DNA from: Convolutriloba macropyga
Taxonomy: Eukaryota
DNA: 64,000 nt
Assembly (NCBI RefSeq): GCF_964194025.1
Contig: NC_134470.1
Coordinates: 80,166,001 to 80,230,000, forward strand
Reading direction: 5' to 3'
Part shown: positions 19,027 to 56,100 of the stretch, piece by piece
Layout of the letters: each line of letters begins with the position of its first letter
Position numbering within the stretch: the stretch's first letter is position 1
Program-made: the position numbers and the translations under genes
Notes under the pieces: model-generated
What the model was told of the DNA's origin: nothing
Database searches by the model: none
What the model saw: only the letters and a program-made list of their open reading frames with translations

Positions 19027-19077
19027 TGCAAATGGATATGCGAGCAGAAAATTTGGCAAGAGGTGTGGAAAATATCA
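19027..19077 (+). mobile_element. LINE A middle sliver between two insertions
   Basis: Translates KWICEQKIWQEVWKIS, bridging APLVYQL (17292-17311) and YATPI-KSG (33990 onward). Confidence 0.75.
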
Positions 19078-19501
19078 TGTGAGTGTCACACGTATATTTA
19101 AAAAAATGTACTAAAAACCTTCGGTTTCAAGGTTAAAGATTTAGTTTAAAATTTGATTTATTAACACTGTTGATAGGTGTCAGAAAAGAAAAAAGACCCG
19201 TGATTAGACAAAGCTCGGGCTTTGAGCGAAATCAACGAAACTGACATATCTTTGTTGACTTGGTTAATTTACCACGAGGATAGCAACGATATTGAGTACC
19301 GACCAAAGCAAGAATTAAATTCATTCATTGAACACCAAAATAACCATCAGATCTAACCACTCCATTAAATTTTAATTTATTTAAACCAACCTTTCTTCGC
19401 CTAAATCTACTTAACAATTTAACTTATAACTTTGCTTTTTAACCAAGAATCACGCTCAATTAGCCAAAGAAATAGAGTATTGCGCACCGGCGGCTTCTAT
19501 A
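19078..19501 (+). repeat. Gypsy 5' LTR (TG...TA)
   Basis: tgtgagtgtcacacgta ... ggcggcttctata; homologous to 33558-33985. Confidence 0.92.
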
Positions 19502-22500
19502 GTGGCGATAGAGATTAAAACTAAATGAAAAACCACCACCCTATAATATTGAGCGTAATACTGATTTCTAAAGAAATCTATTTTTTTTGAAAATCAGCTG
19601 TCCGACACAAATCTGACGTCTAAACATCAAGACACGAAATAGGAATTTTGAACTGGTGTCGGGATTAGACAAGGAACACTGCCATCTTCCAACGTTCAAG
19701 TGAGAACTCCCTCGAAATTTCGAATATCGTAAACCTGTTCGTACATGTTTTTTTGATTAAAAAAATAGCCTTTAAAATCAAGCGTATTTGAATTCGACAT
19801 AGTTTGACTTAAAATACACCATTGCAACTCTTTTTTTTGAATTTTTTTCAAGAAAAAAATACAGTGTCAATATGATTCAAAAGCTGCTGAGTTAAAGTGT
19901 CAAAAGGTAGTTCGGGTTTCGATTATAGTTAATGAAATAATTTGACAAACAGCAGCATTTAAATAAAACACTGATGGCGCAGCTCTCCTCAAAAACGCTG
20001 TTTCCGGGGCTTTTTACGGGTTCGAACGATTTTGAAAGTTATGTTAAACACTTTGAGCTCTTGTAACAACTTCAGAACTGGCAAAGAAAAGAAACAGTAA
20101 ACGGAGACAAAACCGAAATTGATGAACGGCAGCATTATTTGCGTTAAGGCTATAAAATTCGGCTATTGATTTCTATTGTACACTTTCGGAGGACACTAGG
20201 AAGAGCAATGATGAGACCGTAAAAATTTTCAGAAAAAATTATAATGAGAAATTTATAGTTTTCCGGGGGAGGGTTGCTAGGAGAGTCCAGCAGACTGGTG
20301 AACACTTAACAAATTGTCACGGTGATTTGCAAACTTTAGCCTTGAAAGCGTACCCTCAGGAGTCTAATAAGATCAGAGAACATCTCATTTTGAGGAAGTT
20401 CCTTGAAGGCATAGAAATCAGTCAGGTGCGACTCGACATGAGAGAGAACTTGGGGACGCGGATGTGACTTGAGACAAAGCCTTAGAAAGAGCACTACATA
20501 TTGGAGCAGTCACGAGAATTATGGAGGTGGATGAAGAGCTGCGGGTTTCTGCCACCCAGTTGACCAGTTGAATGAAAACACTCAAATAGTTATTTTTATT
20601 AACGATTTAGTGCGCACACCGCAGACTAACCAATCTAACATGCAAGATAATCAAAAATTTTCATCGCAAGGAGCGAGGCCAAAAAATTTCGAGCGAAATC
20701 AACGAAACCGAAATATCTTTGTTGACTTGATTAATTTACCCGGTGATAGCAACGATATTGGGTATCGACCAAAGCGAGCATTAAATTCATTAGTTGAACA
20801 CCAAACTTACCATCAGATCTAACCACTCCATTAAATCTTAATCAATTTAAACCAACTTTTCTTCACCTTATTTTACTTAACAATTTCACTTCTAACTTTG
20901 CCTTTTAATCAAGTATCACGCTCAATTAGCCAAAGAAATAGAATATTGCGCACCGGCGGCTACTATAGTGGCGACAGAGTTTAAAAGTAAATGAAAAACC
21001 ACCACCCTATAATATTGAGCGTAATACTGATTTCTAAAAGAAATCTGTTTTTTTTTTGAAAATCAACTGTCCAACAAAAGTCTGACGTCTAAACATCAAG
21101 ACACGAAAGAGAATTTTGAACTGGTGTCGGGATTAGACAAGGAAACTGCCGTCTTTGATTTTTCAAGTGAGTACTCCTTCAAAATTTCGAATATCGTAAA
21201 TCTGTTCGAACATGTTTTTTTCATAAAAAAATAGCCTATAAAATCTAGCGTATTTGAATTCGACATAGTTTGACTTAAAATTCACCATTGGAACTCGAGT
21301 TTTTTTGAATTTTTCAAGAAAAAAATACAGTATCAATAAGATCCAAAAACTGCTGAATTAATGTGTCAAAAAGTAGTTCGGGTTTCGAACATAATTATTG
21401 AAATAATTTGAAAAACAGCAGCATTTAAATAAAACACTGATGGCGCGGCTCTCCTCAAAAACGCTGTACCGAGTCTTTTAACGGGTTCGAACGATTTTGA
21501 AAGTTATGTTTCACACTTTGAGCTCTTGTAACAACTTCAGAACTGGCAAAGAAAAGAAACAGTAAACGGAGACAAAACCGAAATTGATGAACGGCAGCAT
21601 TATTTGCGTTAAGGCTATAAAATTCGGCCCTTGATTTCTATTGTACACTTTTGGGGGACACTAGGAAGAGCAATGATGAGACCGTAAAAATTTTCAGACA
21701 AAATTATAATGAGAAACTTATAGTTTTCCGGGGGAGGCTCGCTAGGAGAGTCCAGCAGACGGGTGAACAATTAACAAATTGTCTCGGTGATTTGCAAACT
21801 TTAGCCTTGAAAGCGTACCCTCATCAGTCTAATAAGATCAGAGAACATCTCATTTTGAGTAGGTTTCTGGAAGGCTTAGAAATCAGTCAGGTGCGACTCG
21901 CCATGAGAGAGAACTTGGGGACGCGGATGTGACTTGAGACAAAGCCTTAGAAAGAGCAATACATATTGGAGCAGTCACGAGAATTGAGGAGGGGGATAAA
22001 GAGCTGCGGGTTTCTGCCATCCAGCTGAATGTAAACACTCAAATAGTTATTTTATTAACGATTTAGTGCGCACACCGCAGACTAACCAATCTAACATGCA
22101 AGATAATCAAAAGTTATCATCGCAAGGAGCGAGACCAAAAAACTTTGAGCGAAATCAACGAAACCGAAATATCTTTGTTGACTTGATTAATTTACCTCGG
22201 TGATAGCAACGTTATTGGGTATCGATCAAAGCGAGAATTAAATTCATTAATTGAACACCAAACTTACCATCAGATTTAACCACTCCATTAAATCTTAATC
22301 AATTTAAACCAACTTTTCTTCACCTTATTTTACTTAACAATTTAACTTCTAACTTTGCCTTTTAATCAAGTATCACGCTCAATTAGCCAAAGAAATAGAG
22401 TTTTGCGCACCGGCGGCTACTATAGTGGCGACAGAGATTAAAACTTAATGGAAAACCACCACCCTATAATATTGAGGGTAATACTGATTTCTAAAAGAAA

Positions 22501-25500
22501 TCTGTTTTTTTTTTGAAAATCAACTGTCCGACACAAGTCTGACGTCTAAACATCAAGACACGAAATAGGAATTTTGAACTGGTGTCGGGATTAGACAAGG
22601 AACACTGCCATCTTCCAACTTTCAAGTGAGAACTCCCTCGAAATTTCGAATATCGTAAATTTGTTCGTACATGTTTTTTTGACAAAAAAATAGCGTTCAA
22701 AATCAAGCGTATTTGAAAACGAAATAGTTTGACTTAAAACACATCATTGGAACTCGAGTTTTTTAAAATTCTTTCCAAGAAAAAAATACAGTGTCAATAA
22801 GATTCCAAATTTGCTGAGTTAGAGTGTCAAAAAGTAGTTCAGTTTTCGAACATAATTATTGAAATATTTTAAAAAACAGCAGCATTTAAATAAAACACTA
22901 ATGGCGCAGCTCTCCTCAAAAACGCTGTTTCCGGGGCTTTTTTCAAATTCGAACGATTTTGAAAGTTATGTTAAACACTTTGAGCTCTTGTAACAACTTC
23001 AGAACTAGCAAAGAAAAGAAACAGTAAACGGAGACAAAACCGAAATTGATGAACGGAAGCATTATTTGCATTAAGGCTATAAAATTCGGCTATTGATTTC
23101 TATTGTACACTTTCGGAGGACACTAGGAAGAGCAATAATGAGACCGTAAAAATTTTCAGACAAAATTATAATGAGAAACTTATAGTTTTCCGGGGGAGGG
23201 TCGCTAGGAGAGTCCAGCAGACGCGTGAACAATTAACAAATTGTCTCGGTGATTTGCAAACTTTAGCCTTGAAAGCGTACCCTCAGGAGTCTAATAAGAT
23301 CAGAGAACATCTCATTTTGAGGAGGTTTCTGGAAGGCTTAGAAATCAGTCAGGTGCGACTCGCCATGAGAGAGAACTTGGGGACGCGGATGTGACTTGAG
23401 ACAAAGCCTTAGAAAGAGCAATACATATTGGAGCAGTCACGAGAAGTGAGGAGGGGGATAAAGAGCTGCGGGTTTCTGCCATCCAGTTGAATGTAAACAC
23501 TCAAATAGTTAATTTTATTAACGATTTAGTGCGCACACCGCAGACTAACCAATCTAACATGCAAGATAATCAAAAGTTTTCATCGCAAGGAGCGAGGCCA
23601 AAAAATTTTGAGCGAAATCAACGAAACCGAAATATCTTTGTTGACTTGATTAATTTACCCGGTGATAGCAACGATATTGGGTATCGACTAAAGCGAGAAT
23701 TAAATTCATTAGATGAACACCAAACTTACCATCAGATCTAACCACTCCATTAAATCTTAATCAATTTAAACCAACTTTTCTTCACCTTATTTTACTTAAC
23801 AATTTAACTTCTAACTTTGCCTTTTAATCAAGTATCACGCTCAATTAGCCAAAGAAACAGAGTATTGCGCACCGGCGGTTACTATAGTGGCGACAGAGAT
23901 TAAAACTAAATGAAAAACCACCACCCTATAATATTGAGCGTAATACTGATTTCTAAAAGAAATCTGTTTTTTTTTTGAAAATCAACTGTCCGACACAAGT
24001 CTGACGTCTAAACATCAAGACACGAAATAGGAATTTTGAACTGGTGTCGGGATTAGACAAGGAACACTGCCATCTTCCAACTTTCAAGTGAGAACTCCCT
24101 CGAAATTTCGAATATCGTAAATCTGTTCGTACTTGTTTTTTCGACAAAAAAATAGCGTTCAAAATCAAGCGTATTTGAATACGAAATAGTTTGACTTATT
24201 AAAACACATCATTGGAACTCGAGTTTTTTAAAATTCTTTTCAAGAAAAAAATACAGTGTCAATAAGATTCAAAAGCTGCTGAGTTAGAGTGTCAAAAAGT
24301 AGTTCGGGTTTCGAACATAATTATTGAAATATTTAAAAAAACAGCAGCATTTAAATAAAACACTGATGGCGCAGCTCTCCTCAAAAACGCTGTTTCCGGG
24401 GCTTTTTACGGGTTCGAACGATTTTGGAAGTTATGTTAAACACTTTGAGCTCTTGTAACAACTTCAGAACTGGCAAAGAAAAGAAACAGTAAACGGAGAC
24501 AAAACCGAAATTGATGAACGGCAGCATTATTTGCGTTAAGGCTATAAAATTCGGCTATTGATTTCTATTGTACACTTTCGGAGGACACTAGGAAGAGCAA
24601 TGATGAGACCGTAAAAATTTTCAGAAAAAATTATAATGAGAAATTTATAGTTTTCCGGGGGAGGGTTGCTAGGAGAGTCCAGCAGACAGGTGAACACTTA
24701 ACAAATTGTCACGGTGATTTGCAAACTTTAGCCTTGAAAGCGTACCCTCAGGAGTCTAATAAGATCAGAGAACATCTCATTTTGAGGAAGTTCCTTGAAG
24801 GCATAGAAATCAGTCAGGTGCGACTCGACATGAGAGAGAACTTGGGGACGCGGATGTGACTTGAGACAAAGCTTTAGAAAGAGCACTACATATTGGAGCA
24901 GTCACGAGAATTATGGAGGTGGATGAAGAGCTGCGGGTTTCTGCCACCCAGTTGACCAGTTGAATGAAAACACTCAAATAGTTATTTTTATTAACGATTT
25001 AGTGCGCACACCGCAGACTAACCAATCTAACATGCAAGATAATCAAAAATTTTCATCGCAAGGAGCGAGGCCAAAAAATTTTGAGCGAAATCAACGAAAC
25101 TGAAATGTCATTGTTGACTTGATTAATTTACCACGGTGATAGTAACGATATTGGGTATCGACCAAAGCGAGAATTAAATTCATTAATTGAACACCAATCT
25201 TACCATCAGATCTAACCACTCCATTAAATCTTAATCAATTTAAACCAACTTTTCTTCACCTTATTTTACTTAACAATTTAACTACTAACTTTGCCTTTTA
25301 ATCAAGTATCACGCTCAATTAGCCAAAGAAATAGAGTATTACGCACCGGCGGCTTCTATAGTGGCGATAGAGATTAAAACCAAATGAAAAACCACCACCC
25401 TATAATATTGAGCGTAATACTGATTTCTAAAAGAAATCTGTTTTTTTTTTGAAAATCAACTGTCCGACACAAGTCTGACATCTAAACATCAAGACACGAA

Positions 25501-26500
25501 AGAAGAATTTTGAACTGGTGTCGGGATTAGACGAGGAACACTGCCATCTTCCACATGTTTTTTCGATTAAAAAAATAGCGTTCAAAATCAAGCGTATTTG
25601 AATACGAAATAGTTTGACTTAAAATACATCATTGGAACTCGAGTTTTTTTGAATTTTCTTCAAGAAAAAAATACAGTGGCAATAAGATTCAAAAGCTGCT
25701 GAGTTATAGTGTCAAAAAATAGTTCGGTTTTCGAACATAATTAATAAAATATTTTAAAAAATAGCAGCATTTAAATAAAATACTGATGGCGCAGCTCTCC
25801 TCAAAAACGCTGTTTCCGGGGCTTTTTACGGGTTCGAACGACTTTGAAAATTATGTTAAACACCCTTGTGCTCTTGTAACAACATCAGAATTGGCAAAGA
25901 AAAGAAACATTAAACGGCGACAAAACCGAAATTGATGAACTGCCGCATTGTTTTGCGTTAAGGATACAAAAGTCGGCAATTGATTTCTATCGTACACTTT
26001 CGTAGGACACTAGGAAGCTCTATGATGAGACCGTAAAAACTTTCAGACAAAATTATAACGAGAAACCTATAGTTTTGCGTGGGAGGTTCGCTAGGAGAGT
26101 CCAGCAGACGTGTGAAAAAATAACAAATTGTCTCGGTGATTTGCAAACTTTAGCCTTGAAAGTGTACCCTCAGGGTTATAATCAGATAAGAGAACATCAC
26201 ATTTTGAGGGGATTCCTGGAAGGCATAGAATATAGTCAGGTGCGACGCGATCTGAGAGATAACTTGGGTGACGCGGATGTGACTTTAGACAAAGCTTTAG
26301 AAAGAGCACTACATATTTAAGCAGTCACGAGAATTGAGGAGGAGGATAATGAGCCGCGGGTTTCTGCTGTCCAGTTGAAGGAGAACACTCAGCTACTTAA
26401 TTCGATTGGCGATTTAGTGCGAACACTGCCGACTAACCAATCTTACAGGCAAGATAATCAAAAGTTTTCATGGCAAGGCGCGAGGCTAAAAAAGATTCTG
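19224..26500 (+). repeat. Five tandem ~1.46 kb units of partial LTR + PBS + leader + 5' gag
   Basis: gagcgaaatcaacgaaac starts at 19224, 20691, 22147, 23610 and 25083. Confidence 0.97.
19503..19513 (+). promoter_or_regulatory. Gypsy primer binding site TGGCGA(T/C)AGAG (repeated near 20968, 22425, 23888, 25362)
   Basis: TGG-initiated motif 1 nt after the LTR end; cognate tRNA not determined. Confidence 0.75.
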
Positions 26501-26800
26501 CGCGGAAGCGGGAGTAGTTCAAGAGAGACCGGAGAGAGAAATAGGAGCTATAATAGCTATCACAGAAGCAGCGCTTATACAGTAGGGCGCGATCCCAAAC
26601 ACCAGGAGGCGAGAACAGAAGACAAGGTCGGTCGCACGAGAGTTGTGCCGAGCAGTCAAGACATCGGTGAGTTTTGAGAGAGAAAAATGTCACCGTTGCG
26701 CTCAGCGAAATCAGGCATCTAAGGACTTCTAGATTTGTTTTGAATGTGGGAGTCAAAATCATTTCAAACGATTTTGCCCGTATTTAAACGAGAACTAGCT
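25786..26800 (+). pseudogene. Gypsy gag (disrupted) with CCHC knuckle
   Basis: MAQLSSKTLFPGLFTGSNDF..., LARRVQQ..E....LGDLQTLA, and CFECGSQNHFKRFC at ~26735-26778. Confidence 0.85.
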
Positions 26801-29800
26801 GAAGATGGCAGGGCTTCATTTTCAGCAAGCTACGTAAAAACGTAGAAACAGCCCAGTGGAGGCCTTGTTTCACAATATAATGACAAAAGACTAACTGATA
26901 ATGGCTTGATTCATAGTGGAAGTAGTAATAATCTCTTAAGCGACACACTCTACCAACAACTCGGGGAACCGAGCCAGATCAGAATATGCAATAAAAACAT
27001 AATAGCTGCCAACAATGGAAAAATGCCTTTAAAACGGTCATCAGCTATTCAGGTCCAACTTCAAAAAATTTACTACTGAGATAGCAGTTGAGTTTTTAGT
27101 AACCAAAATTAAGATAACGCCTTGTTTAATGGGCATGGAGTTCTTATATAAATTTGACCGTTTTTTAAACCCCAGAGAAAACGAACTCTTTTGCGGGACA
27201 ATTGGGAAAACATTACAATTTTCCCCATCCCAACGAAGTAATAAGTACCTGTTTTTAATTGCTGCTGAGGATCACGAATTACCCCGCCTCCGCGAAAGTT
27301 TCATTAAATTCCAAAATTGTCGGTGAAGAAGGTAACATAACACAGCGAACAGAAATTATAGTCGAACCCATGAAAGAGTTTGAAGACAAATCACATGTAT
27401 TATTTGCGAGATCGCTAAATGACATTGTTAATGATGTCATATGGGTTCGAGTTCTGGATTCTACACTACAGCCAAAGAAAGTTTACACAAATGCGAGAAT
27501 TGCATGTGCGGAAAACATTGAAAAAATTTCAAGAATTTAACAAAATAACCCTGATAAAAGAACAAAACATAGAGATGAGTTTGACTTTGAGAAGCATGTG
27601 AACGCAAGATCAATGAGCTTGTCTTGAGGAGGAAATGACAAAGGTGAGGTCACAAAATTGAGGTCACAAAAGTGAGGAAAAGACAAAATGTGAAACAATA
27701 TTTTCGCCAAACTCAATTGATATGGGATTTCGTGACCGAATATATCATAAAATAAAAATAAAAAAGGATGCTGTGCCTTTCAAACAAACATACGGCAGCA
27801 TGAGATTTGAGAAAAGAAAAGCAATGAAAAAACCGTTGCAAACTTAGAACGAGAAGACTTAGTCGAACCAACACATTCCGACTGGGCAGCACTATCATTA
27901 CTTGTACCAAGAAAGATGGAACCTATAGCTTGGTTGTAGACTATCGGCGTCTGAAAATACTAAAAGAAAAATCATTCTGGCCTTTACCACGAATTAATGT
28001 GGTTATTGACTCACTGGAGGGAAACATTTACTTCTCGAACATAGATCTCTTGTTGGGATACTTTCAGATGGCGACCGAGGAAGAGAATCAGAATTGAACA
28101 GCTTTTATAACGCCTCTAGGCCTGTATAGGTGGAAATGACTCCCTATGGGACTAGCGTGTGCTTCGGGTGCTTTTCAAAACCTAATGGAGTTAACTTTTG
28201 CTGACATCATCCCTGAAGAAAATTAGGGCCTTTCTAGGCCTTGTGGGCTATTATCGAAAAGTTTTTCTGGGTTCCGGAAAAACAGCAGAACCTCTTTACA
28301 GTTCACTGAATAAGTCAAATAAAATTGAATGGAGTACAGAGTGCAAAAAAGCGGTAACCGAGTTAAAAAAAGGCTTTTGGACGCCCCAGTTTTAGAATAC
28401 CCAAACGATAGGGATAAGTATACATTAACTACGGATGCTTCGTTGACAGGAATTGGAGCAATTCCTACCGAAAAGAAAGGAACCGAGGATAGAGTTAATG
28501 TACATGCTAGCAAAACCCTGAGTAAAAGTCAGCGAATTTATTCAGTCACTACGCGGGAACTAATTGCAATTGTTCATTATACTCAACATTTTAAAAACTA
28601 TTTACTTAAACATCACTTTTTAATTATAACGGACCAACGGTTTCTTGTCTAGGTCTATAGTTTTAAAAAACCAGACAGTATGGTGGCAAGATGGATAGAG
28701 AAAATTGGGCAATTTAACTTTGACATCAAACATAGGGCAGGAAAAAAATTCGCACACTCTGACTGTCTGTCGCGCAGAAGCACAGAAGACGATGAACAAA
28801 CAGCTTTTGTTAACGCTATTGCGATGGACGCAGAGCAACACAATACAAATTATGGTAGTCGAGGTTGGCAGTTAGACAAACTGCAGAGAGTAAAACTGCC
28901 AGATTCGCAGCAAAATGAGAAAATAATCAAAGATGTATACTCCTGGGTACTAAACAAAAAAAGACCGGAACCACGGAAAATGAAAAATGGAGCATCAAAG
29001 GTGTTATGGAAATACTCGGTTCAGTATAAAAATCTTTGTCTCATAGACGGGATTTTGTATTGTAAACACCAAACAGAGTCAAACTATGAGACTGTTTACC
29101 AAACGCTTGTACCATGGGAGAGAGCTCGAGCTGTTGCATGAATCCACTAGCGCAGTTCACTTTGGGATTGAGAAAACATACCAAAGTGCTCGTGAAAAAT
29201 TTTTTGGCCGTGCTAAAGAAGGGACGAAAGAAACTGAATATAAAGCTGTTACGTGTGCCTAAAAAGGAAAAGGACTAAGCAGAGACATCGGAAATCACTC
29301 ACAAAATGGAAACCTAGTCATCCATTTTGGCAAGTATCTCTTGATATCATGGGTCCATTTCCCGAGTCTCGGGGAAACAAGTACATTTTGCTTATTGGTG
29401 ATCAATTCAGTAAGTGTTACGAAGCCGTAGCTTTACCCAATCAAGAAGCAAAAACCGCGTCAAGAGCGTTTGTTGAACGCTGGATAGTCAGATTCGGCTG
29501 TCTAGTCAAACTACACAGTGACCAAGGGTTTATCTTTATGTCAAAATTATTTTGTAGTCTTTGCAGTGAACTAGGAAATCAGAGGACATCAATCATATCC
29601 TACCACCCAGAAAGGAACGCGATGATGGGAAAAAGAAATCGGACAACAGAAGAATGTCTCTCCAAGCACATGGGCCAATATCAGCATGAGTAGTGGACCA
29701 AATTTCTACAATTAGCGATGATGGCCTATCTATCATCCATCCATAGTGTAACAAAATACAGCCCAGCGTGTGTGGTACTAGGTTTTCCACTGTCGCTACC

Positions 29801-30040
29801 TATAGACTGCATCTATAGCACACCACAGACGGCAACATATGCAACACCAAGTGACTATGTTTTCACAATGAAACAGAAACTACAGGAAACGAATCAGTTG
29901 TTGCGAGAATATATATGGATGTCGAACAAGAACTTCAGAAGACCTAATATGATCGCAGTAGGTATACACCAAGCTATAAAATTAGCGAAGAAGTGTTAGT
30001 TTTCAACCCAACGGCTAAAAAAGGAGTAACAAAATTCTAA
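26800..30040 (+). pseudogene. Gypsy pol (PR-RT-RNase H-IN), frameshifted, RT core partly deleted
   Basis: GLIHSGS (mutated protease site), KKDGTYSLVVDYRRL, AFLGLVGYYRK, LTTDASLTGIGA, VSLDIMGPFP, LHSDQG, SYHPERNAM. No YLDD motif between 28190 and 28220. Confidence 0.93.
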
Positions 30041-32185
30041 AACCAGAAAAAACCACAGGAATCTATTTGTAAATTAAAAAGTACTGAAGAAAAGATTAAT
30101 TGTGATTCCAAGGCACCAAAAACGGCTACAAGCTCGAGCAGCCGATTCAAATCGGTGCATGAGAAATTGAAGAATTACTTTACTGGGCAAGATGATTAGT
30201 ACTTCAGCTGTCAGGAAACTGATGATGTTTTTGTTTCAGGAAAATCCTGAAAGAAAAAATGGAATCGAAAAGAAAGACAATTCCGTCCGGAGCAGTGTGT
30301 GATGGAGTATCACTATAATTGTATCTGGCATTGCCAGCCATTTTTGGTTCTCCATCACTTTGTATCAAATTATACGGTAATGATTTTGTCAATATCGTAT
30401 CAACAAAGATCTATTCACTAGATCACACTACAAAATGTGATAACAAATTTCGAGTATCGGAAACAAAGGAAGAGGGTAGTTTGATATATGCTGAGGTTCA
30501 GCCTGAGATAGAAAACGGCATATACAGTGTCGGCAGTTTAAAAAAGCAACGTATATGACGAAGTTGTTTTTCTCACAAAAAATTCGAGACTACTAAAATC
30601 AATATGCTCCTTAAATGAAGGAGTTTGTAGGAACATTTGGCAGAACGAAAAGTTTGCCATATCAGGTTTTGGAGATAGGACATTTAAAGTCAAGATGTCG
30701 GTAACTGAAAAAAATTTACGACAGGCCACTGACACCAATTATGTCAAAGAGCATAGTCAAAGCTTCATGGCAAAAATGGGTGCGAAGGTTTCACCTACAG
30801 GCGTGGGTTTCACCTACAGGAGAAAAATTTATTGGAAATGTGGTAATCAATGCAAAAATTTACATCGGATAAATTTGGGGGAAATAGCTACAAAGAATCC
30901 TATTAAAAATTAAGGATCCCTTATGTGTCTCGAAAACTGTTTTCATCGAAACCACATATTTTGAAGACAATTTAGAAAAACTATTTTTTTGAAAATCAAT
31001 GTGAGCAAACATGTCAAAAGATCAAACATTTTATTAAAGAGGACGCTCTAAAAACTTTTGGTAACAACAAGACCACTTTTATCAGAGGAAAAACTTTAAA
31101 CAAAAAGAAAATAGAAGAATTTGCAATAGAATTTTTAGAGGAAAAAGCAATTAGTTTGTGTTTACAGCAGTTGGAAACAACCGGAATTCCAGGTGTTTTT
31201 ACTCCGAGGAGAGTTCAGAACTGAAAACTGGTAATCTTAAAATAACCATGGAAATGATTCTTGCAAGCGTTGTTGACACCTTTAATTCCTTCTCAAAGAA
31301 AGTGAATTTTTGTAATGAAAATTGGAACGCTCCAATGCGAGATTCAACGACTGAAAATTCAGACAATGATTGAAATATCAAAAAAGATTGTTAGTCCATA
31401 AGTAAAGTTCGTCGAGAAAGGAACTCACTTTGAAAGAGCAGGTTCTTTGCTATATGATCATAAATGAGCCAAGATGGTAGCAACAATAATTAAACTTCCT
31501 TTTTACACAGAAGAAGTTCCTGTGTTAGTAGAGGGACAGAACTTCCCACCTATTAGATATATGGAACCTATTACAAAAGTTTATACAATCATAATTATAC
31601 AATCAACCCGCTGTAACCAAATGTTGTCCAATTAGAAGACAACAGTTTTCAACAATATAGAGAAACATTGAAGAAATTCAATCCTGAGATATGTCATTGT
31701 CGATAAATGGTAACTTAAATTTAAGTGAGGAAAACCTGCATCGCAGCCTTTTCTCTACATCAGACGTCAAACAGTGTCAAATTGCTCGAACAGTTCGCCA
31801 TAATAGTAAAGGAAATATCAGTCGGGAAGCATTCCGAGATTCGGAAGAAAAATACAGTCACGAAATTTTTTTCCATTCGAACGACCAGTTCCAACATGAA
31901 CTTTTTCTAACAAATAAAATCACAATTTTTCGGAATTCAAGAACCGAGTCTTAACAGTCTATCTCATTTTTCAATTTGTGAAAAAGTTTCCTAAATTGCT
32001 CATCAATTTAGGATTAGTTTTTAATGGAGCGTCTTGGCAGCAATTAATGGGGAATCTTGACCAAATAACGGGAACACGTTTGTATAATCAATTACTCAAT
32101 TTAATAAATGAACGCCGAAAACAAAAGAAAATTATTGAAAAAAAGAGTCCTTAAAAGAGTCAGATGTTTAAAACATAGAAGAAAC

Positions 32186-32492
32186 GTCTCAAGTTCGAGA
32201 CTAAAAAAAAAGAAAAGAAGGGAAAAAAGAAAGAAAAAGAAAAATAGGTTGTCTCGATTTCAAGACCAAAAAAGGGAGAAACCTCTGGTTTTTGCGACCA
32301 GAAAAAGTGGTCTTGAGTTCAAGACCAAAAAAAGAAGAAAGGGGAACGTCTCGAGTTCGAGTTCAGAAAAATTGTCTTGAATTCGGGACAAAAAAGTTTG
32401 TCTTGAGACCAAGAGCAAAAAAATGGGAACGTTTCGAGTTCGAGACCAAAAAAAGAAAGGAAAAAAAGGGAAAAATCTTGAGTTCAAAAATG
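32186..32492. repeat. Array of ~9 palindromic motifs GTCTYGA-GT-TCRAGAC separated by purine-rich spacers
   Basis: Perfect copy ggtcttgagttcaagacc at 32309-32326; others near 32186, 32251, 32284, 32348, 32374, 32400, 32431 and 32477. Confidence 0.85.
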
Positions 32493-32623
32493 AAAATATT
32501 GAGACAATTTAGAAGCAAAAAGGGTTTTTTATCCAATAAAGCGGGTAACGAGATTTCACAGATTGGTAAATATGTGTACTACATGCCAGAATTGTGGAAT
32601 GTTTTTTATGAGAATCCCCGGGA

Positions 32624-33430
32624 GTGTACCGAGTGAAATCTTGTCTGTCGCGGACCCGGAAAGTATCTACGCTAGAACATCTGGCACCAGCCAATATTCG
32701 GTCGCGTGCTCTGCAGACTGAAGTGGAACTGCAAAACCAGTGCTTGCAGTTAGAGAAGTTGAAGAGTACTAACTCTTCACTTCAAAAAGACCTCATCGAG
32801 CTTCTACAGCAACTGGATAATTATTGCAACAAGACCAAAGAGGCAACAGAGGTAGTTTTGGGAGCGCCAAGTAAATGGAGCGCCAAGTGTGAGGCGTTAC
32901 GAGATAATTTAAAGGCAGCAGCATCCAGAAATGCTGAACAGGACTTCATTGAGGTATTGAAGCAAGATTTGGCCAATTTGAAAGCCAAAGCTGATAAAAA
33001 GGGCAAAGCCATCGAAAACATGGAGAAATTTAATTTCCAATTGAGGTCAGAGCTTGAGCAGCTGGAACACTACAACCAGCACTTGGCCAACGAATGCTGA
33101 AGAAAAAGCCCATCTCTTTGATCGACAAAAGAGTACTCATAGAAACGGAAAAGCCAAAACAAAGGCCATGGAGAAATGTTTATCGGAGATTCGGAACATA
33201 AACGATTTGAAACGCTATACGAAATTTTGTTGGTCACAACTTCTCCTTCAAAAGATCAGATCAAGAAACACTACAACTAAATGAGCCTGTTGATGCACCC
33301 TGATGCTGGTGCAGACAAAGAATTCTTCAAGACCATCAACCGGGCACATCAAATTCTGACAAAAGATGCGGCACGGGAAGCGCACAACATATTTGGACTT
33401 TAGGAGGCAGAAAAAGTTATGAACAACTAA
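32624..33430 (+). pseudogene. Gypsy-borne accessory ORF: coiled coil plus C-terminal DnaJ (J) domain, disrupted
   Basis: 32624-33100 is heptad-rich (L/E/Q/K). 33209-33430 translates ETLYEILLVTTSPSKDQIKKHYN*MSLLMHPDAGADKEFFKTINRAHQILTKDAAREAHNIFGL*EAEKVMNN*, with HPD at 33296-33304. Confidence 0.85.
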
Positions 33431-33544: not shown

Positions 33545-33557
33545 AGGAGGGGGGCAG
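33545..33557 (+). promoter_or_regulatory. Gypsy polypurine tract
   Basis: aggaggggggcag immediately before the 3' LTR TG. Confidence 0.9.
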
Positions 33558-33985
33558 TGTGAATGTCACACGTATCTAAAAAGATGTAGTAAAAACCTTG
33601 GTTTTCAAGGTTAAAGATTTAGTTTAAAACTTGATTTCTTACCCAATTTATGGCTAACACAAGGTTGATAGGTGTCAAAAATATGATTAGACAAAGCTCG
33701 GGCTTCGAGCAAAGTCAACGAACCTGACATATATTTGTTGACTTGGTTAATTTACCACAATGATAGCACCGATATTGGGTACCGACCAAAGCGAGAACTA
33801 AACTCATTCATTGAACACCAAACTTAATATGAGAGCTAACCACTCTATTAAATCTTAATCTAATTTCACCAATTTTTCTTCATTTTAATCTAATTAACAA
33901 TTTAACTTCTAATTTTGAATTTTAACCAAGTCCCACGCTCAATTAAATAAAAGACATATAGTATTTAGCACTGGCGGCTACTATA
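33558..33985 (+). repeat. Gypsy 3' LTR
   Basis: tgtgaatgtcacacgta ... ggcggctactata, followed by TSD atca. Confidence 0.92.
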
Positions 33986-35433
33986 ATCATATGCAACTCC
34001 CATAACAAGTCTGGTTCCACTAGTGATATCACCTTTTAACGTCCGCGTAGTATTTTATCTAAATTGTCACTAGTAATGAAACGCCTCCTTTTTGATTATG
34101 TGTATCCTAGGGTTCGCTCTTCTATTTCAAATCAACAGCTTGGCTTTATGCAATCCCTCATCACTGTGACCCAGATATTATCTTACTTGGACCATATCTA
34201 CTCTTTAAGTGACAATAATGTGCCGGTAGTTGAACTATATTTTGACGTAAAGAATGCTTTTGATTCCGCTAAAACAAAACCTATTATGGACGAAACTAGA
34301 AAAGTATGGTTTGGACATCGACTTTCCGACTTTTATGGATTCCTAATTGTTCAACAGAAAATGATGTGTTAAACTCGATTCCTCTCTCTCTCTCTCTCCG
34401 GAGATTCCGGTGATATCTGGTGTTCCCAGGGGCAGTGTACTTGGGCCCTTACTATTCACTCTCTTCAATAATGATATTGGCGACAACCTTGAAAGCAGCA
34501 ACTACTTTCTTTTTTGTGAAGATTCTTTCATCTGCCGAGCCAGGACTAGTGCAGGACGATTTGGATGTCCTTTTTAATTGATGGTCTTCCAATAGTCTAA
34601 CCTTCCAACTGTTCTGTCTAACCCCCAAATGTTCTTTACTGTCTTTTAATTCTACATTTGATTCATCCTTTACGTTGGGTAATGATTTATTCAATTCGAC
34701 GAAGCGAATTAATGACTTCGGTTTTATTTTTAAATCAAATCTGTCTTGGGAAACTCACATCGATGAAAAATTGAGCAAATCATTTCATGTTTTTCATTTT
34801 CTTAGAAGAAATGTTCCTTTTAATGTTTCAGAGAAATGGAAGAAATTCTCCACAGTACACTCATTCAGTCAGTACTATTATACGGAAGTCCTGCTTGGTC
34901 ACCCATAATCACTGAATTGCGAGGGCTGGAAAGATTTCAGTGCTGTGTTGTGAAATGGATCAAAAGCGCCAATGGCTACAACACGAAACTCAAACAATTT
35001 AAAATACTCCCTATATGCTTTCAACTAATAAAAACTCAACTCATCTTATTATGGAATTTGTGCAATGACAAACTTGATATAAGTGATCCCCCATACTTTT
35101 AACCATTTACCCACACGTTCATCAAATCTTTATCTTTTTAACATTCCATCTAGAGGGAAATTTTAGAGCGATAATAATTTCTTCATTCGTGCTCCGAGGA
35201 TTGCTTTTAAAGCTCAGCATAATTTCTTTCGAGATGCCGTTAACTTCATTTAGAACCGCTATATCTAAATATCTGAATACTAAGTTGTATTCTTTTTTAT
35301 TGATAACCCAAGAATTTTTTACAATATAAGTTTTTGTAAATTTTGTCAATCTTATCACACCAGTTCGCTTTTCTTAACTTTGTACTTATCGTATAAAGAA
35401 TCGAGTCTTTTACTACTAATGCTACTACTACTA
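33986..35433 (+). mobile_element. LINE A 3' part: decayed RT and (ACT)n tail
   Basis: QQLGFMQ, YFDVKNAFD, SGVPRGSVLGPLL, LLYGSPAWSP; tail tactactaatgctactactactac at ~35411-35434. Confidence 0.88.
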
Positions 35434-35690
35434 CAAGCTCTACGTCGCCTATGTTGCTCCAATACTCCTGTATGGTTCTCAAATCTGTTGCTTGTCTATT
35501 GCAGACATCACAGCTTTCAAAAATATCCAAGAGAATTGCATTAGATGGTTTTACGGGAGTTCTAGGAACTACTTGGACATACTTCTCACTCAAAAATTTC
35601 TCTCGATGGCTTTTCGAATCCAAGTTGAGGACTACCGGCTGTTCATTCTCTTGGCCCAAAGGAAGCTATTAAGCAACTTCTGTGTATAAT
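35434..35690 (+). mobile_element. LINE fragment (post-RT region)
   Basis: KLYVAYVAPILLYGSQI...IQENCIRWFYG resembles the corresponding region of LINE B (YTGYIVPIISYACQVW...IQKSATKWIIG). Confidence 0.7.
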
Positions 35691-35699
35691 GTTGAAACT

Positions 35700-36510
35700 T
35701 TATCTCTTGGTGTGACGAGAAGACGGAGAAACAGATTCAAACTCAAACGTAAATTAGCCCGTAATTGTAAAAGATTTATACCAGTACTTTGAGGACCTAA
35801 TAGACCTTAACATACCTCGTGGAACACGACATCGTCAGAGTAACCCAACGTAAATAACGCCTAGCACTTCTAATTTTATTGAATGACTACAAACCCAAGA
35901 TCAACTACTTAGTTCAAAGCCCACGAGCTACCGCAAAAGAAATGTAGAGACTTTAAGAGTTGTCGTGACTGAAGCTGCAGAGACAAAAAAGATTTTTTTA
36001 TGAAGAAGGTCTTATGCGTACTCGAAATATATGAATGGTTTTAAGCACTTGAAAAGCTTTAAAAAAATCATGCAGTCTCTCAAACCACTTGCGTTTAAGA
36101 CCAAAACAAACGTAAATGTCTATGACAGGGTAAATATGCCGAATGAGTTCTTCCAATCTTTCTTTTCGCCCAAAATTTCAATCGATATCAACGAAAATGA
36201 TCCTGAAAACCCAGAGTTGTCGACTTTTAGTGCATCGAAAATATCTCTGCAAAATATTCTTCTGACCATAGATCCTAAAAAATCTCGTGCTCCAGACGCC
36301 TTACCACCATTGTGCTACCAGAAAACTTTTAAAGAAATAGTCAACTGCCTGAACTAAATTTTGAAAAGCGTAAAGCGTCTAAGATTTTACCTGATAGTTG
36401 AAAAATTGCAGCAGTTTCCCCAATTTTCAAGAAGAGCGACAGAATATCAATTGAATATTACAAACCAGTTTCTCTGTTGAACATAAACAGTAAAATGTTC
36501 AAAAATTTTT
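35700..36510 (+). mobile_element. LINE fragment (EN-RT linker and RT start)
   Basis: NEFFQSFF, KSRAPDALPP, KIAAVSPIFKK, YKPVSLL. Confidence 0.8.
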
Positions 36511-50199: not shown

Positions 50200-53100
50200 T
50201 CTTTAGCAAAAAAACGACATATTGTAAACTTGTATGATTAAACTTCATAATTGATGAGATTTAAATTGCAAAGACTCAAACGTTGTATCAATATTCAGAC
50301 TTGGTAGGTCTGTAACGTAAGAGCAATGTACGGCATATAAGAAGGCCAATTTTGTTATCGACAAGCAGTCCACTGACAGAACAAGGCTTTGCTCGTAGGT
50401 AACGGTTATTTGTGGACACGGACACACCCAAAACAAGTTAATAATGAAATGGGCAGGTTCCTTACTGAAATACTCTCCCGAGTTGAATGTCCTCCCTAAA
50501 ATCCTCCCATTTTGTTGTAATAGTGCGGGTGGGGGGTTAATTTGTCTATGGGGGTAAATTGATGTAAGGTTGCGGGGGTACTGTATTCAGAGAGGGTAAA
50601 TTGATGTATGAGTTGGGCTGCAATGGGAGGACTTCTGAGGAATTACCCCCCCCCCCTCCCCGACTGAAATTGCCATGTAAGAGTTGGCTGCAATGGGCCG
50701 CAATGGCAATGGGAGGACATTTGAGGAATTAACCGCCGGACTGTAATTGACCTGTAAGAGTGGGCTGCAAGGGGCTGCAATGCGATGACTTTTCAGGAAT
50801 TAACCCCTGACTTAAATTGCCCTCTAAGAGTGGGCTGCAATGTGTGAAACGTTAAAGAATGAGGGGGTAATTTGTTCAGAGGTGTAAAATGATGTAAAGA
50901 ATCTTTAGCAAAAAAACGACAGTTTGTAAACTTGTATGATTAAACATAAAAATTGATGTAATTTTTTAAATTGCATGGACTCAAACGTTGTACCATTGTT
51001 TAGACATGATAGGTCTTTACCAGGTCAAAGCAATGTACAGCATATAAGCAGGCCAATTTTGTTATCGACAAGCAGTCCACTGACAGAACAAGGATTTGCT
51101 CGTAGCTAACGGTTATTTGTGGACACGGAACATATCCAGAACAAGTTAATAATGAAATGGGCAGGTTCCTTACTGAAATACTCTACCGAGTTGAATGTCC
51201 TCCCTAAAATCCTCCCATTTTGTTGTTAGAGTGGGGGTTAATTTGTCTATTGGGGGTAAATTGATGTAGGAGTGTGGAGTTAATTTGTTCAGAGTGGGTA
51301 AAATGACGTAAGAGTTGGCCTGCAATGGGCGGACTTTTGAGGAATTACCCTTCTGACTAATGTTGTCCTGTAAAAGTGGACTGCAATGGACTGCAATGGG
51401 ATTACTTTAAAGGAATTACCCCCTTACTAAAATTGCCATGTAAGAGTGGGCTGTAATGGGCTGCAATGGGAGGATTTTTCAGGAATTATCCTCCTGACTA
51501 AAACTGTCATGTAAGAGTGCGCCGCAATGAGCTGCAGTATACGGCATAGAAGCAGGCTAATTTTGTTATCGACAAGCAGTCCACTGACAGAACAAGGATT
51601 TGCTCGTAGCTAACGGTTATTTGTGGACACGGAACACATCCAAAACAAGTTAATAATGAAATGGGCAGGTTTCTTACTGAAATACTCTACCGAGTTGAAT
51701 GTCCTCCCTAAAATCCTCCCATTTTGTTGTTAGAGTGGGGGTTAATTTGTCTATTGGGGGTAAATTGATGTAGGAGTGTTGGGGGTAATTTGTTCAGAGT
51801 GGGTAAATAGATGTAAGAGTTGGCCAGCAATGGGCGGACGTTTGAGGAATTACCCCCCTGACTGAAAGTACCATGAAAGAGATGGCTTCAATGGGCTGCA
51901 ATGGGATGACTTTTGAGGAATTATCCGCCTGACTAAATTGTCCTGTAAGAGTGGGCTGCAATGGGATGACTTTTCATGAATTACTCCCCTGACTTAAATT
52001 GCCATGTAAAAGTGGACTGCAATGGACTGCAATGGGACTACTTTAGAGGAATTACCCCCCCCCCCCCCTTACTAAAATTGCCATGTAAGAGTGGGCCGCA
52101 ATGGTTTGCAATGGGAGGATTTTTCAGGAATTATCCTCCTGACTGAAACTGTCATATAAGAGTGCGCTGCGACGGGCTGCAGTGTACGCCATAGTAGCAG
52201 GCCAATTTTGATATCGACAAGCAGTCCACTCACAGAACAAGGATTTGCTCGTAGCTAACGGTTATTTATGGACACGGAACACATCCAAAACAAGTTAATA
52301 ATGAAATGGACAGGTTCGTTACTGAAATGTTCTCCCGGGTTGAATTTCCTCCCTAAAATCCTCCCATTTCGTTGTAGTAGTGGGGGTTAATTTGTCTATT
52401 GGGGTTAAGATTGATGTAAGATTGCGTGGGTACTGTATTCAGAGAGGGTAAAATGATGTAAGAGTTGGGCTGCAATGGGCGGACTTTTGAGGAATTACCC
52501 CCCCCCCCCCGACTTAAATTGCCATGTAAGAGTTGGCTGCAATGGGCTGCAATGGGAGGACATTTGAGGAATTACCCGCCGGACTGTAATTGTCCTGTAA
52601 GAGTGGGCTGCAAGGGGCTGCAATGCGATGACTTTTCAGGAATTACCCACTGACTTAAATTGCCATCTAAGAGTGGGCTGCAATGGGTAAAACGTTTAAG
52701 AATGAGCAGGTAATTTGTTCAGAGGTGTAAAATGATGTAAAGAATCTTTAGCAAAAAAACGACAATTTTTAAACTTGTATGATTAAACAAAAATTGATGT
52801 AATTTTTTAAATTGCATGGACTCAAACGTTGTGTCAATGTTTAGACATGATAGGTCTTTACCAGGTCAGAGCAATGTACAGCATATAAGCAGGCCAGTTT
52901 TGTTATCGACAAGCAGTCCACTGACAGAACAAGGATTTGCTCGTAGCTAACGGTTATTTGTGGACACGGAACACATCCAAAACAAGTTAATAATGAAATG
53001 GGCAGGTTCCTTACTGAAATACTCTACCGAGTTTAATGTCCTCCCTAAAATCTTCCCATTTTGTTGTTAGAGTGGGGGGTTAATTTGTCTATTGGGGGTA

Positions 53101-56100
53101 AATTGGTGTAGGAGTGTGGGGTTAATTTGTTCAGAGTGGGTAAAATGATGTAAGAATTGGCCTGGAGTGGGCGGACTTTTGAGGAATTACCCGTCTGACT
53201 AATGTTGTCCTGTAAGAGTGGGCAGCAATGGGCTGCAATGGGATGACTTTTCAGGAATTTCTCCCCTGACTAAAACTGTCATGTAAGAGTGCGCTGCAAT
53301 GAGCTGCAGTGTACGGCATAGAAGCAGGCCAATTTTGTTATCGACAAGCAGTCCACTGACAGAACAAGGATTTGCTCGTAGCTAACGGCTATTTGTGGAC
53401 AAGGAACACATCCAAAACAAGTTAATATTGAAATGGGCAGGTTCCTTACTGAAATACTCTACCGAGTTGAATGTCCTCCCTAAAATGTTCCCATTTTGTT
53501 GTTAGAGTGGGGGTTAATTTGCTTATTGGGGGTAAATTGATGTAGGAGTGTTGGGGGTAATTTGTTCAGAGTGGGTAAATAGATGTAAGAGTTGGCCTGC
53601 AATGGGATGACTTTTGAGGAATTACCCGCCTGACTAAAGTTATCCTGTAAGAGTGGGCTGCAATGGGCTGCAATGGGATGACTTTTGAGGAATTACCCGC
53701 CTGACTAAAGTTGTCCTGTAAGAGTGGGCTGCAATGGGCTGCAGTGTGCGGCATAGAAGCAGGCCAATTTTGTTATCGACAAGCAGTCCACTGACAGAAC
53801 AAGGATTTGCTCGTAGCTAACGGTTATTTGTGGACACGGACCACATCCAAAACAAATTAATAATGAAATGGACAGATTCGTTACTGAAATACGGGTTGAA
53901 TTTCCTGCCTAAAATCCTCCCATTTCGTTGTAGCAGTGAGGGTTAATTTGTCTATTGGGGGTAAATTGATGTAGGAGTGTGGGGGTAGTTTGTTCAGAGT
54001 GGGTTAAATGATGTAAGAGTTGGCCTGCAATGGGCGGACTTTTGAGGAATTACCCCTTGACTGAAAGTGCCATGAAAGAGTGGGCTGCAATGGGCTGCAA
54101 TGGGATGACTTTTGAGGAATTACCCGCCTGACTAAAGTTGTCCTGTAAGAGTGGGCTGCAATGGGCTGCAGTGTACGGCATAGAAGCAGGCCAATTTTGT
54201 TATCGACAAGCAGTCCACTCACAGAACAAGGATTTGCTTGTAGCTAACGGTTATTTATGGACACGGAACACATCCAAAACAAGTTAATAATGAAATGGAC
54301 AGGTTCGTTACTGAAATGTTCTCCCGGGTTGAATTTCCTCCTTAAAATCCTCCCATTTCGTTGTAGTAGTGGGGGTTAATTTGTCTATTGGGGGTAAATT
54401 GATGTAGGAGTGTGGGGGTAATTTGTTCAGATTGGGTAAAATGATGTAAGAGTTGGCCTGCAATGGGCGGACTTTTGAGGAATTACCCCCCTGACTGAAA
54501 GTGCCATGAAAGAGTGGGCTGCAATGGGCTGCAATGGGATGACTTTCGAGGAATTACCCGCCTGACTAAAGTTGTCCTGTAAGAGTGGGCTGCAATGGGC
54601 TGCAGTGTACGGCTTAGAAGCAGGCCAATTTTGTTATCGACAAGCAGTCCACTGACAGAACAAGTATTTGCTCGTAGCTAACGGTTATTTGTGGACACGG
54701 AACACATCCAAAACAAGTTAATAATGAAATGGGCAGGTTCGTTACTGAAATACTCTACCGAGTGGAATGTCCTCCCTAAAATCCTCCCATTTTGTTGTTA
54801 GAGTGGGGGTTAATTTGCCTATTGGGGGTAAATTGATGTAGGAGTGTTGGGGGTAATTTGTTCAGAGTGGGTAAATAGATGTAAGAGTTGGCCGGCAATG
54901 GGCGGACTTTTGAGGAATTACCCCCCTGACTGAAAGTACCATGAAAGAGTGGGCTGCAATGGGCTGCAATGGGATGACTTTTGAGGAATTACCCGCCTGA
55001 CTAAAGTTGTCCTGTAAGAGTGGGCTGCAATGGGCTGCAATGGGATGACTTTTCATGAATTACTCCCCTGACTTAAATTGCCATGTAAAAGTGGACTGCA
55101 ATGGACTGCAATGGACTGCAATGGGATTACTTTAGAGGAATTACCCCCCTTACTAAAATTGCCATGTAAGAGTGGGCCGCAAGGGTTTGCAATGGGAGGA
55201 TTTTTCAGGAATTATTCTCCTGACTGAAATTGTCATATAAGAGTGCGCTGCGATGGGCTGCAGTGTACGGCATAGAAGCAGGCCAATTTTGTTATCGACA
55301 AGCAGTCCACTCACAGAACAAGGATTTGCTCGTAGCTAACGGTTATTTATGGACACTGAACACATCCAAAACAAGTTAATAATGAAATGGACAGGTTCGT
55401 TACTGAAATGTTCTCCCGGGTTGAATTTCCTCCCTAAAATCCTCCCATTTCGTTGTAGTAGTGGGGGTTAATTTGTCTATTGGGGGTATATTGATGTAGG
55501 AGTGTGGGGGTAATTTGTTCAGAGTGGGTAAAATGAGGTAAGAGTTGGCCTGCAATGGGCGGACTTTTGAGGAATTACCCCACTGACTGAAAGTGCCATG
55601 AAAGAGTGGGCTGCAATGGGCTGCAATGGGATGACTTTTGAGGAATTACCCGCCTGACTAAAGTTGTCCTGTAAGATTGGGCTGCAATGGGCTGCAGTGT
55701 ACGGCATAGAAGCAGGCCAATTTTGTTATCGACAAGCAGTCCACTGACAGAACAAGTATTTGCTCGTAGCTAACGGTTATTTGTGGACACGGAACACATC
55801 CAAAACAAGTTAATAATGAAATGGGCAGGTTCCTTACTGAAATACTCCACCGAGTTGAATGTCCTCCCTAAAATCCTCCCATTTTGTTGTTAGAGTGGGG
55901 GGTTAATTTGTCTATTGGGGGTAAACTGATATAGGAGAGTGGGGGTAATTTGTTCACAGTGGGTAAAATGATGTAAGAGTTGGCCTGCAATGGGCGGACT
56001 TTTGAGGATTTACCCCCTGACTGAAAGTGCCATGAAAGAGTGGGCTGCAATGGGCTGCAATGGGATGGCTTTTGAGGAATTACCCGCCTGACTAAAGTTG

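Follow-up and report, generated by a model that had tools for sequence, protein, structure and literature searches.

The closest described relatives of the element analysed here are the HSV/gB-type env-carrying Ty3/Gypsy elements termed 'ancient errantiviruses' (Chary and Hayashi, PMC13524379), which, in the portion of that paper available, share with it the order LTR-gag-pol-env, the Gypsy order of pol domains, a class III fusion gene related to chuvirus-type glycoproteins and many near-identical young copies. Env-carrying Gypsy elements have been described as three-gene elements, and the pipeline of that study annotated three ORFs only; in contrast, families of Convolutriloba macropyga carried a fourth ORF with a J-domain. 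The terms DnaJ, J-domain, chaperone and accessory are absent from the available text of PMC13524379, as are DnaJ, J-domain, ORF4 and Hsp40 from the available parts of its seven supplements. Other LTR elements have likewise acquired, close to the 3' end, an accessory non-env module of cellular type, including bdelloid Vesta, TelKA and Juno with GDSL esterase or DEDDy exonuclease ORFs (PMC5408684), arthropod Copia with MBD (PMC6673714), and chromoviruses. In those the extra module replaces env or is fused to pol, whereas here it was added behind env and is a chaperone module; DnaJ has zero occurrences in the sections available of PMC5408684 and PMC6673714. No J-domain retroelement was found in the mostly open-access literature covered, nor in the accessible parts of PMC5408684, PMC6431247, PMC10410713, PMC6673714, PMC9004415 and PMC9210306. 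A J-bearing fourth gene in a retroelement is therefore apparently undescribed, although Repbase, Dfam or GyDB may contain an entry for such an ORF.

A decayed four-gene Ty3/Gypsy copy

The locus lies in a 64,000-nt stretch of Convolutriloba macropyga DNA (NC_134470.1, 80,166,001-80,230,000, forward strand), hereafter the window, whose positions are used throughout. Like other Ty3/Gypsy LTR retrotransposons, the element possessed LTRs, a target-site duplication, a primer-binding site, a polypurine tract and the expected order of pol domains. Its parts were as follows:

19074-19077, left target-site duplication ATCA (from sequence)
19078-19501, + strand, 5' LTR, TG...TA (blastn against the 3' LTR)
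19220-25553, + strand, tandem amplification in units of ~1465 bases comprising part-LTR, leader and 5' gag (in this copy only)
19503-19513, + strand, primer-binding site TGGCG... (same type in families A and B)
19700-19706, + strand, candidate splice donor in the leader of the first unit (predicted from sequence)
25765-26795, + strand, gag, decayed (CCHC zinc knuckle in open copies)
26800-30150, + strand, pol, decayed, approximate limits (order protease-RT-RNase H-integrase, full order in open copies)
30226-32166, + strand, ORF3, decayed class III envelope/fusion glycoprotein gene (tblastn; PF24664 in open copies)
32170-32520, + strand, A-rich short tandem repeats between env and ORF4 (copy number differs among family A copies)
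32526-33430, + strand, ORF4, decayed: small beta domain, long coiled coil, C-terminal J-domain (open-copy comparison and model)
about 33215-33385, + strand, J-domain, with HPD at 33296-33304 (Pfam DnaJ, E 3.8e-13)
33545-33557, + strand, polypurine tract (from sequence)
33558-33985, + strand, 3' LTR (blastn and alignment)
33986-33989, right target-site duplication ATCA (from sequence)

This copy is old and broken. Its LTR pair was 80.7% identical by blastn (352 of 410 aligned columns the same), its pol survived as pieces matching Pfam RT_RNaseH_2 (1.2e-23) and rve (2.5e-8), its env aligned by tblastn at 63-75% over 89% of the family A env, and its ORF4 showed 79% DNA identity to an open copy. 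The tandem units at 19220-25553 were 93-95% identical to each other, indicating that this amplification postdates the ageing of the insertion. Elsewhere in the window, decayed LINE-like reverse-transcriptase frames were seen by eye to the right of the 3' LTR (34040-35700), and a complex satellite array with units of ~434 and 647 bases occupied 50300-59000. The window held no tRNA gene, and one pattern search matched no priming tRNA to the TGGCG... site, a type absent from part 1 of 34 of the errantivirus element table of PMC13524379.

The J-domain was evaluated by translating 33143-33427 with X at stops and comparing it with Pfam DnaJ (PF00226). The match was well above the cut-off (49.8 bits against 27.8), covering profile positions 2-62 of 63. 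A profile of 19 host J-domains scored 35.2 bits on the same region, against 2.0 for the best of 200 shuffles (170 of which scored at all); this control and the Pfam E-value rule out a chance match. The HPD motif, read as intact in the original prediction, was so. The prediction's two stops (33278, 33401) were likewise seen, as were its two frameshifts, indels near 33102 and 33211 that separate the coil from the J-domain. Its reading of an LTR-bounded element with the frame ending 115 bases before the polypurine tract also agreed with the LTRs and the ATCA duplication. The gene limits it gave were right at the 33430 end, but the start lay further upstream, at ~32526, and a third frame-changing indel near 32613 had gone unseen, so that the decay amounts to three frame-changing indels plus two stops in or just after the J-domain. 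The J gene did not replace env: env is the decayed ORF3, which the prediction had missed, and the J gene is ORF4 behind it.

Families A, B and C and selection on ORF4

A DNA search of the 1.18-gigabase genome, in which 40 of 490 candidates were scored, yielded among those 40 a further 39 copies at 81-85% DNA identity, and 18 of 19 fetched copies continued into LTR sequence. A protein search raised the number to at least 150 (150 of 1622 candidates scored), many with open frames near 308 codons. ORF4 was present in three families of this genome (A, B and C), so that the predicted accessory gene of a Gypsy element is indeed a family-level feature. The majority of the genome's DnaJ matches belong to copies of the element and not to host genes, which should be heeded in annotation.

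Layout was evaluated in 20 family A and 15 family B loci picked for open ORF4 frames. Families A and B were organised as LTR-gag-pol-ORF3(env)-ORF4-PPT-LTR, and family C as env-ORF4. Upstream of ORF4 in these loci, env sequence was found in 19/20 A and 14/15 B, and pol in 16/20 A and 14/15 B (60% identity filter); two A loci retained only 15-16% of env. Sampling in reverse from the best 30 of 63 env matches, ORF4 was in place behind env in 10/11 A, 7/7 B and 1/1 C loci. In the 18 loci for which both LTRs were seen, the two were 93-99.8% identical, and these young copies had env and ORF4 frames open. In open A and B copies Pfam identified protease, RT, RNase H and integrase in pol and a zinc knuckle in gag, and no chromodomain, the mark of chromoviruses, on pol of A or B (E 0.05). 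ORF3 was 677 and 689 codons long in open A and B copies and matched the viral fusion glycoprotein family PF24664 at 39.9 and 33.9 (both A), 52.7 (B) and 68.7 bits (C), with a cut-off of 27. ORF4 of open copies matched Pfam DnaJ. A simple hydropathy scan found one passing segment per env protein, N-terminal in A and C-terminal in B, and a PDB sequence search with env returned nothing significant.

The families differed in several smaller respects. Gag and pol occupied overlapping frames in family A and one frame of 1686 codons in family B (L051/L052 versus L076), and the spacer between env and ORF4, which in A (e.g. L057) consists of an A-rich unit of 37-40 bases repeated a varying number of times, was nearly nil in B. 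One short element consisted of LTR-ORF4-LTR with ORF4 open and LTRs 95.9% identical (L056:7746-9774), and tandem ORF4-LTR units occurred at L058, L062 and L083. Host genes for a DnaJ protein and for DGCR6 lay ~1.7 kb from a family B element (L073/L027); as this host J-domain was not near ORF4 in the tree described below, the adjacency looks like coincidence. Host genes neighbouring fetched loci, such as the DGCR6 family match, are consistent with an animal genome.

Plain pairwise dN/dS of ORF4 (0.58 in A, 0.32 in B) is diluted by decay after insertion, and we therefore compared single-base codon differences from one natural copy according to whether they were private (one copy) or shared (three or more), with codons bearing more than one difference skipped and with the proviso that duplicated loci could inflate the shared class. 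In 39 A copies the private changes comprised 90 synonymous, 337 non-synonymous and 26 stop (dN/dS 1.01), against 94, 55 and 3 among shared changes (dN/dS 0.16; Fisher p 7e-21); frameshifts numbered 49 private and 3 shared. In the 20 A copies not chosen for open frames, private and shared dN/dS were 1.01 and 0.04 for the J part (p 1e-10), 0.97 and 0.17 for the coil, and 0.87 and 0.16 for the N-terminal part, and 14 B copies gave 0.73 and 0.14 (p 6e-4). HPD was retained in 50/53 copies. Controls on young copies (shared dN/dS 0.89 for 12 env copies and 0.53 for 9 pol copies) were uninformative, since each had only seven shared synonymous changes and the reference's own private changes were counted as shared. 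The pattern points to purifying selection on a gene while the element replicates, followed by decay after insertion. The J-bearing fourth gene is conserved and real. The findings that would have told against it (no DnaJ match, a one-off neutral retrocopy, or an arrangement already catalogued) did not emerge, the last judged from the literature alone.

Relatives with and without a J-domain

Two further families, D and E, possessed an env of the same clade, and in a pol tree of this genome's families only, A and B grouped together (92/98) as sister to D and E (100/99). In family D, of which dozens of near-identical copies were seen, the J-domain was found in 0/11 loci, although a fourth ORF was present. 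This ORF spanned 330 codons in D (L138-L141, e.g. L141:7867-8856) and 407 in E (L143:7640-8860), with an acidic front, a stretch that looked coiled-coil-like by eye and a basic, serine-rich tail, and had no Pfam match. As D and E replicate without it, the J-domain is not required for every env element. No homology of the J-less fourth ORFs to ORF4 was detectable with a profile of J-type N-termini. The simplest reading is one gain of the J-domain on a pre-existing fourth gene, although J may instead have been lost in D and E.

More distant env families had no J-domain in 20 loci and often carried other extra ORFs. Where env was 754-902 codons long, conserved post-env ORFs of 284 codons (L088:6721-7572, L091:6822-7673) and 611 codons (L094:6652-8484, L097:6817-8649) were seen, with a low-complexity front, a coiled-coil-like end and no Pfam match. 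Homology of the ORF4 beta domain to the beta stretch of J-less fourth ORFs (D, 284-aa and 611-aa) or to the integrase C-terminus was not supported, the scores with a profile of J-type N-termini failing to exceed those of shuffles. In two distant families small RING-finger-like ORFs lay downstream of env, at L093:8244-8666 and L095:8077-8571 (zf-C3HC4_3, E 3e-6 and 5e-3), and are possibly ubiquitin-ligase accessory genes. Loci with an 898-codon env (L088-L091, L099, L102, L104-L106), many of them with no pol match within ~3.8 kb upstream, are perhaps a non-autonomous env-only family.

About seven distant ORF4 relatives in public assemblies were identified by a profile search among 1.84 billion representatives and by two word searches; they had the same three-part layout and 29-44% identity to family A (P0095, P0101, P0104/P0243, P0116/P0301, P0125, P0302 and P0249). 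Some had an altered motif or loop, such as NPD in P0302. Searches of this genome for four of them (E 1e-45 or 1e-40) gave no match, and the best matches here to a fifth reached only 29-32%, so that they stem from other genomes. Among viral and metagenome contigs, no locus of an outside ORF4 relative was confirmed; linkage of these proteins to pol or env was thus indirect, through two pairs in which an env relative and an ORF4 relative were on equal-sized contigs (P0256/P0232, 9213; P0267/P0104, 3326).

In a tree of 56 J-domains over 88 columns, in which many forks were open, a branch (100/99) set 14 ORF4-type rows apart from the others, the 19 host rows among them. A short HPD-x-GG loop was present in 13/14 ORF4-type rows and 0/19 host rows, and the rows nearest to ORF4 were unnamed HPD-x-GG proteins. 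These do not point to a donor, since they were themselves chosen for resemblance to the query, intron-split host genes were under-sampled, and one host row sat inside the same weakly supported larger group. Such a single clade, separate from the 19 host J-domains, suggests that J was gained once and long ago, and speaks against a recent retrocopy of a host gene. This clade and loop rule out recent capture from the DnaJ genes sampled in this host.

Proposed role of the ORF4 protein and its known counterparts

A structural model of an open copy comprised four strands (16-49), one helix of 168 residues (55-222) and a J fold (232-303), with mean pLDDT 82.8 and pTM 0.31; the coiled coil and J-domain of the original prediction were thus both present, behind an N-terminal beta domain that it had missed. 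The best structural matches were cellular J-domains (Z 10.4, rmsd 1.7 over 69 residues). The protein had the four-helix J fold and HPD of J-domain proteins, and a basic helix II was seen in 11 family rows. The J-domain was C-terminal and Pfam matched no DnaJ_C or zinc-finger family on ORF4, unlike class A/B Hsp40s. Neither Pfam nor the ESM Atlas matched the N-terminal domain, and an Atlas search with ORF4 gave matches of 0.81 or less, none of them named. Modelled alone, the N-terminal domain reached pLDDT 59.8 and structural matches of Z 2.8 or less; about half of the 14 structural rows we take to be SH3- or Tudor-type, so that an SH3/Tudor-like nature may be entertained as a lead only. A hydropathy scan found no hydrophobic window over 1.6 in ORF4 of A or B, which argues against a secreted or membrane-anchored product.

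The ORF4 message is presumably spliced. A donor-like AA|GTGAGTA occurred in the leader of 11/12 A and 4/5 B copies examined, and candidate acceptors were seen before env (pyrimidine-rich, in A and B) and before ORF4 (TAG). Four public runs, made up of genome-size contigs, covered the element evenly throughout and had no joint with splice ends among those listed, which speaks neither for nor against splicing. ORF4 began with ATG in families B and C; in family A no ATG preceded the first beta strand, 20/20 young copies having another codon there, and translation in this family would have to begin in an exon further upstream or at a codon other than ATG.

J-domains stimulate Hsp70 through HPD. 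Given the intact HPD and strong selection, ORF4 very likely recruits or stimulates host Hsc70. Because it is without the domains by which general Hsp40s bind clients, it resembles a targeted co-chaperone composed of a targeting domain, a rod and an effector, and we postulate, with a probability of roughly 0.6, that ORF4 is an accessory co-chaperone directing host Hsc70 to a client at some step of the element's cycle. Made probably from a spliced subgenomic RNA, its product would be a soluble, cytosolic or nuclear, rod-shaped protein whose beta domain and coiled coil bind the client and oligomerise, and whose J-domain would stimulate Hsc70 such that the chaperone acts on the bound client. The most likely single client may be the element's own particle, with Hsc70 helping the Gag core to assemble, move or uncoat during an infectious cycle; we put this at slightly under even odds, none of the evidence gathered points to Gag as client, and the main rival client is a host complex.

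A host client would make ORF4 a counter-defence or host-control protein that recruits or diverts Hsc70 to dismantle the piRNA/Argonaute loading machinery, a silencing complex or a cell-cycle complex, much as the J-domain of SV40 T antigen makes Hsc70 take apart a bound Rb-E2F complex (PMC7356129, in the part available). piRNA biogenesis needs Hsc70-Hsp90 complexes whose disturbance activates fly transposons (10.1101/423210, in the part available), and ORF4 diverged between families A and B (34% identity) much like env (33%) and far faster than gag (59%) and pol (55%), as is common for host-facing proteins. The short LTR-bounded copy retaining only an open ORF4 would also fit, as would the weak SH3/Tudor-like matches, although the latter come from a low-confidence model at Z 2.8 or less. 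No sign of positive selection was seen, even the N-terminal part having a shared dN/dS of 0.16, and in our sample ORF4 was tied to env-bearing elements, which suits a role at the particle. We consider counter-defence unlikely, if the strongest of the other explanations.

Less probable still, at long odds, is a folding helper for Pol or Env, a private Hsp40 raising enzyme yield, as in the RT-folding idea of the original prediction. Viral polymerases are assisted by host Hsp40s (PMC7356129, in the part available) and the ORF4 J-domain is intact and selected, but by Pfam the protein has neither the G/F and zinc-finger regions nor the C-terminal client-binding domains typical of class A/B Hsp40s, it holds its J-domain at the C-terminal end of a long rod, and it carries no signal peptide that would take it to the ER, the site of Env folding. 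A functionless hitchhiking host fragment or one-off processed retrocopy of a host DnaJ, which the broken window copy and neutral private changes might suggest, is dismissed by the copy number, the occurrence in three families here and more elsewhere, the purifying selection on shared changes with few shared frameshifts, and the clade apart from host J-domains.

The preferred reading, an accessory co-chaperone, has counterparts among viruses. Polyomavirus T antigens, baculovirus BJDP and giant-virus and phage DnaJ proteins are virus gene products which, like ORF4, have an HPD J-domain, a module that can recruit host Hsp70. Among viral models, J proteins of phages, giant viruses, polyomaviruses and baculoviruses matched over the J-domain only, at 26-46% identity across 46-130 columns, and gave no evidence that ORF4 descends from known virus-encoded J proteins, which belong to DNA viruses. 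BJDP probably has a coiled coil. At 302 aa it is also similar in length to ORF4, and is listed as an auxiliary gene (PMC5794183). The J-domain of T antigen is N-terminal (PMC7356129, in the part available), whereas that of ORF4 is C-terminal. Cellular class C (type III) J-domain proteins likewise join a non-N-terminal J-domain to a targeting module; unlike them, ORF4 is encoded by an element and its N-terminal domain is without a Pfam or Atlas match.

On balance we favour a wider reading in which an ancient lineage of endogenous retroviruses of invertebrates, spread over more than one host genome, carries a spliced fourth gene for its own Hsp70 co-chaperone. This would be the first retroelement-encoded J-protein, arising independently of those of DNA viruses when a J-domain was joined to a pre-existing coiled-coil accessory protein, which is still J-less in the sister families. 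Retroelements thereby join the viruses that encode J-domains. The conserved fourth gene shows that accessory genes are possible in env-carrying Gypsy elements, as in complex vertebrate retroviruses, and its readable biochemical function would let the element steer host Hsp70. It offers a handle on which invertebrate retroviral step needs chaperones, or which host defence is disarmed, for which the sister families with a J-less fourth gene provide a natural comparison.
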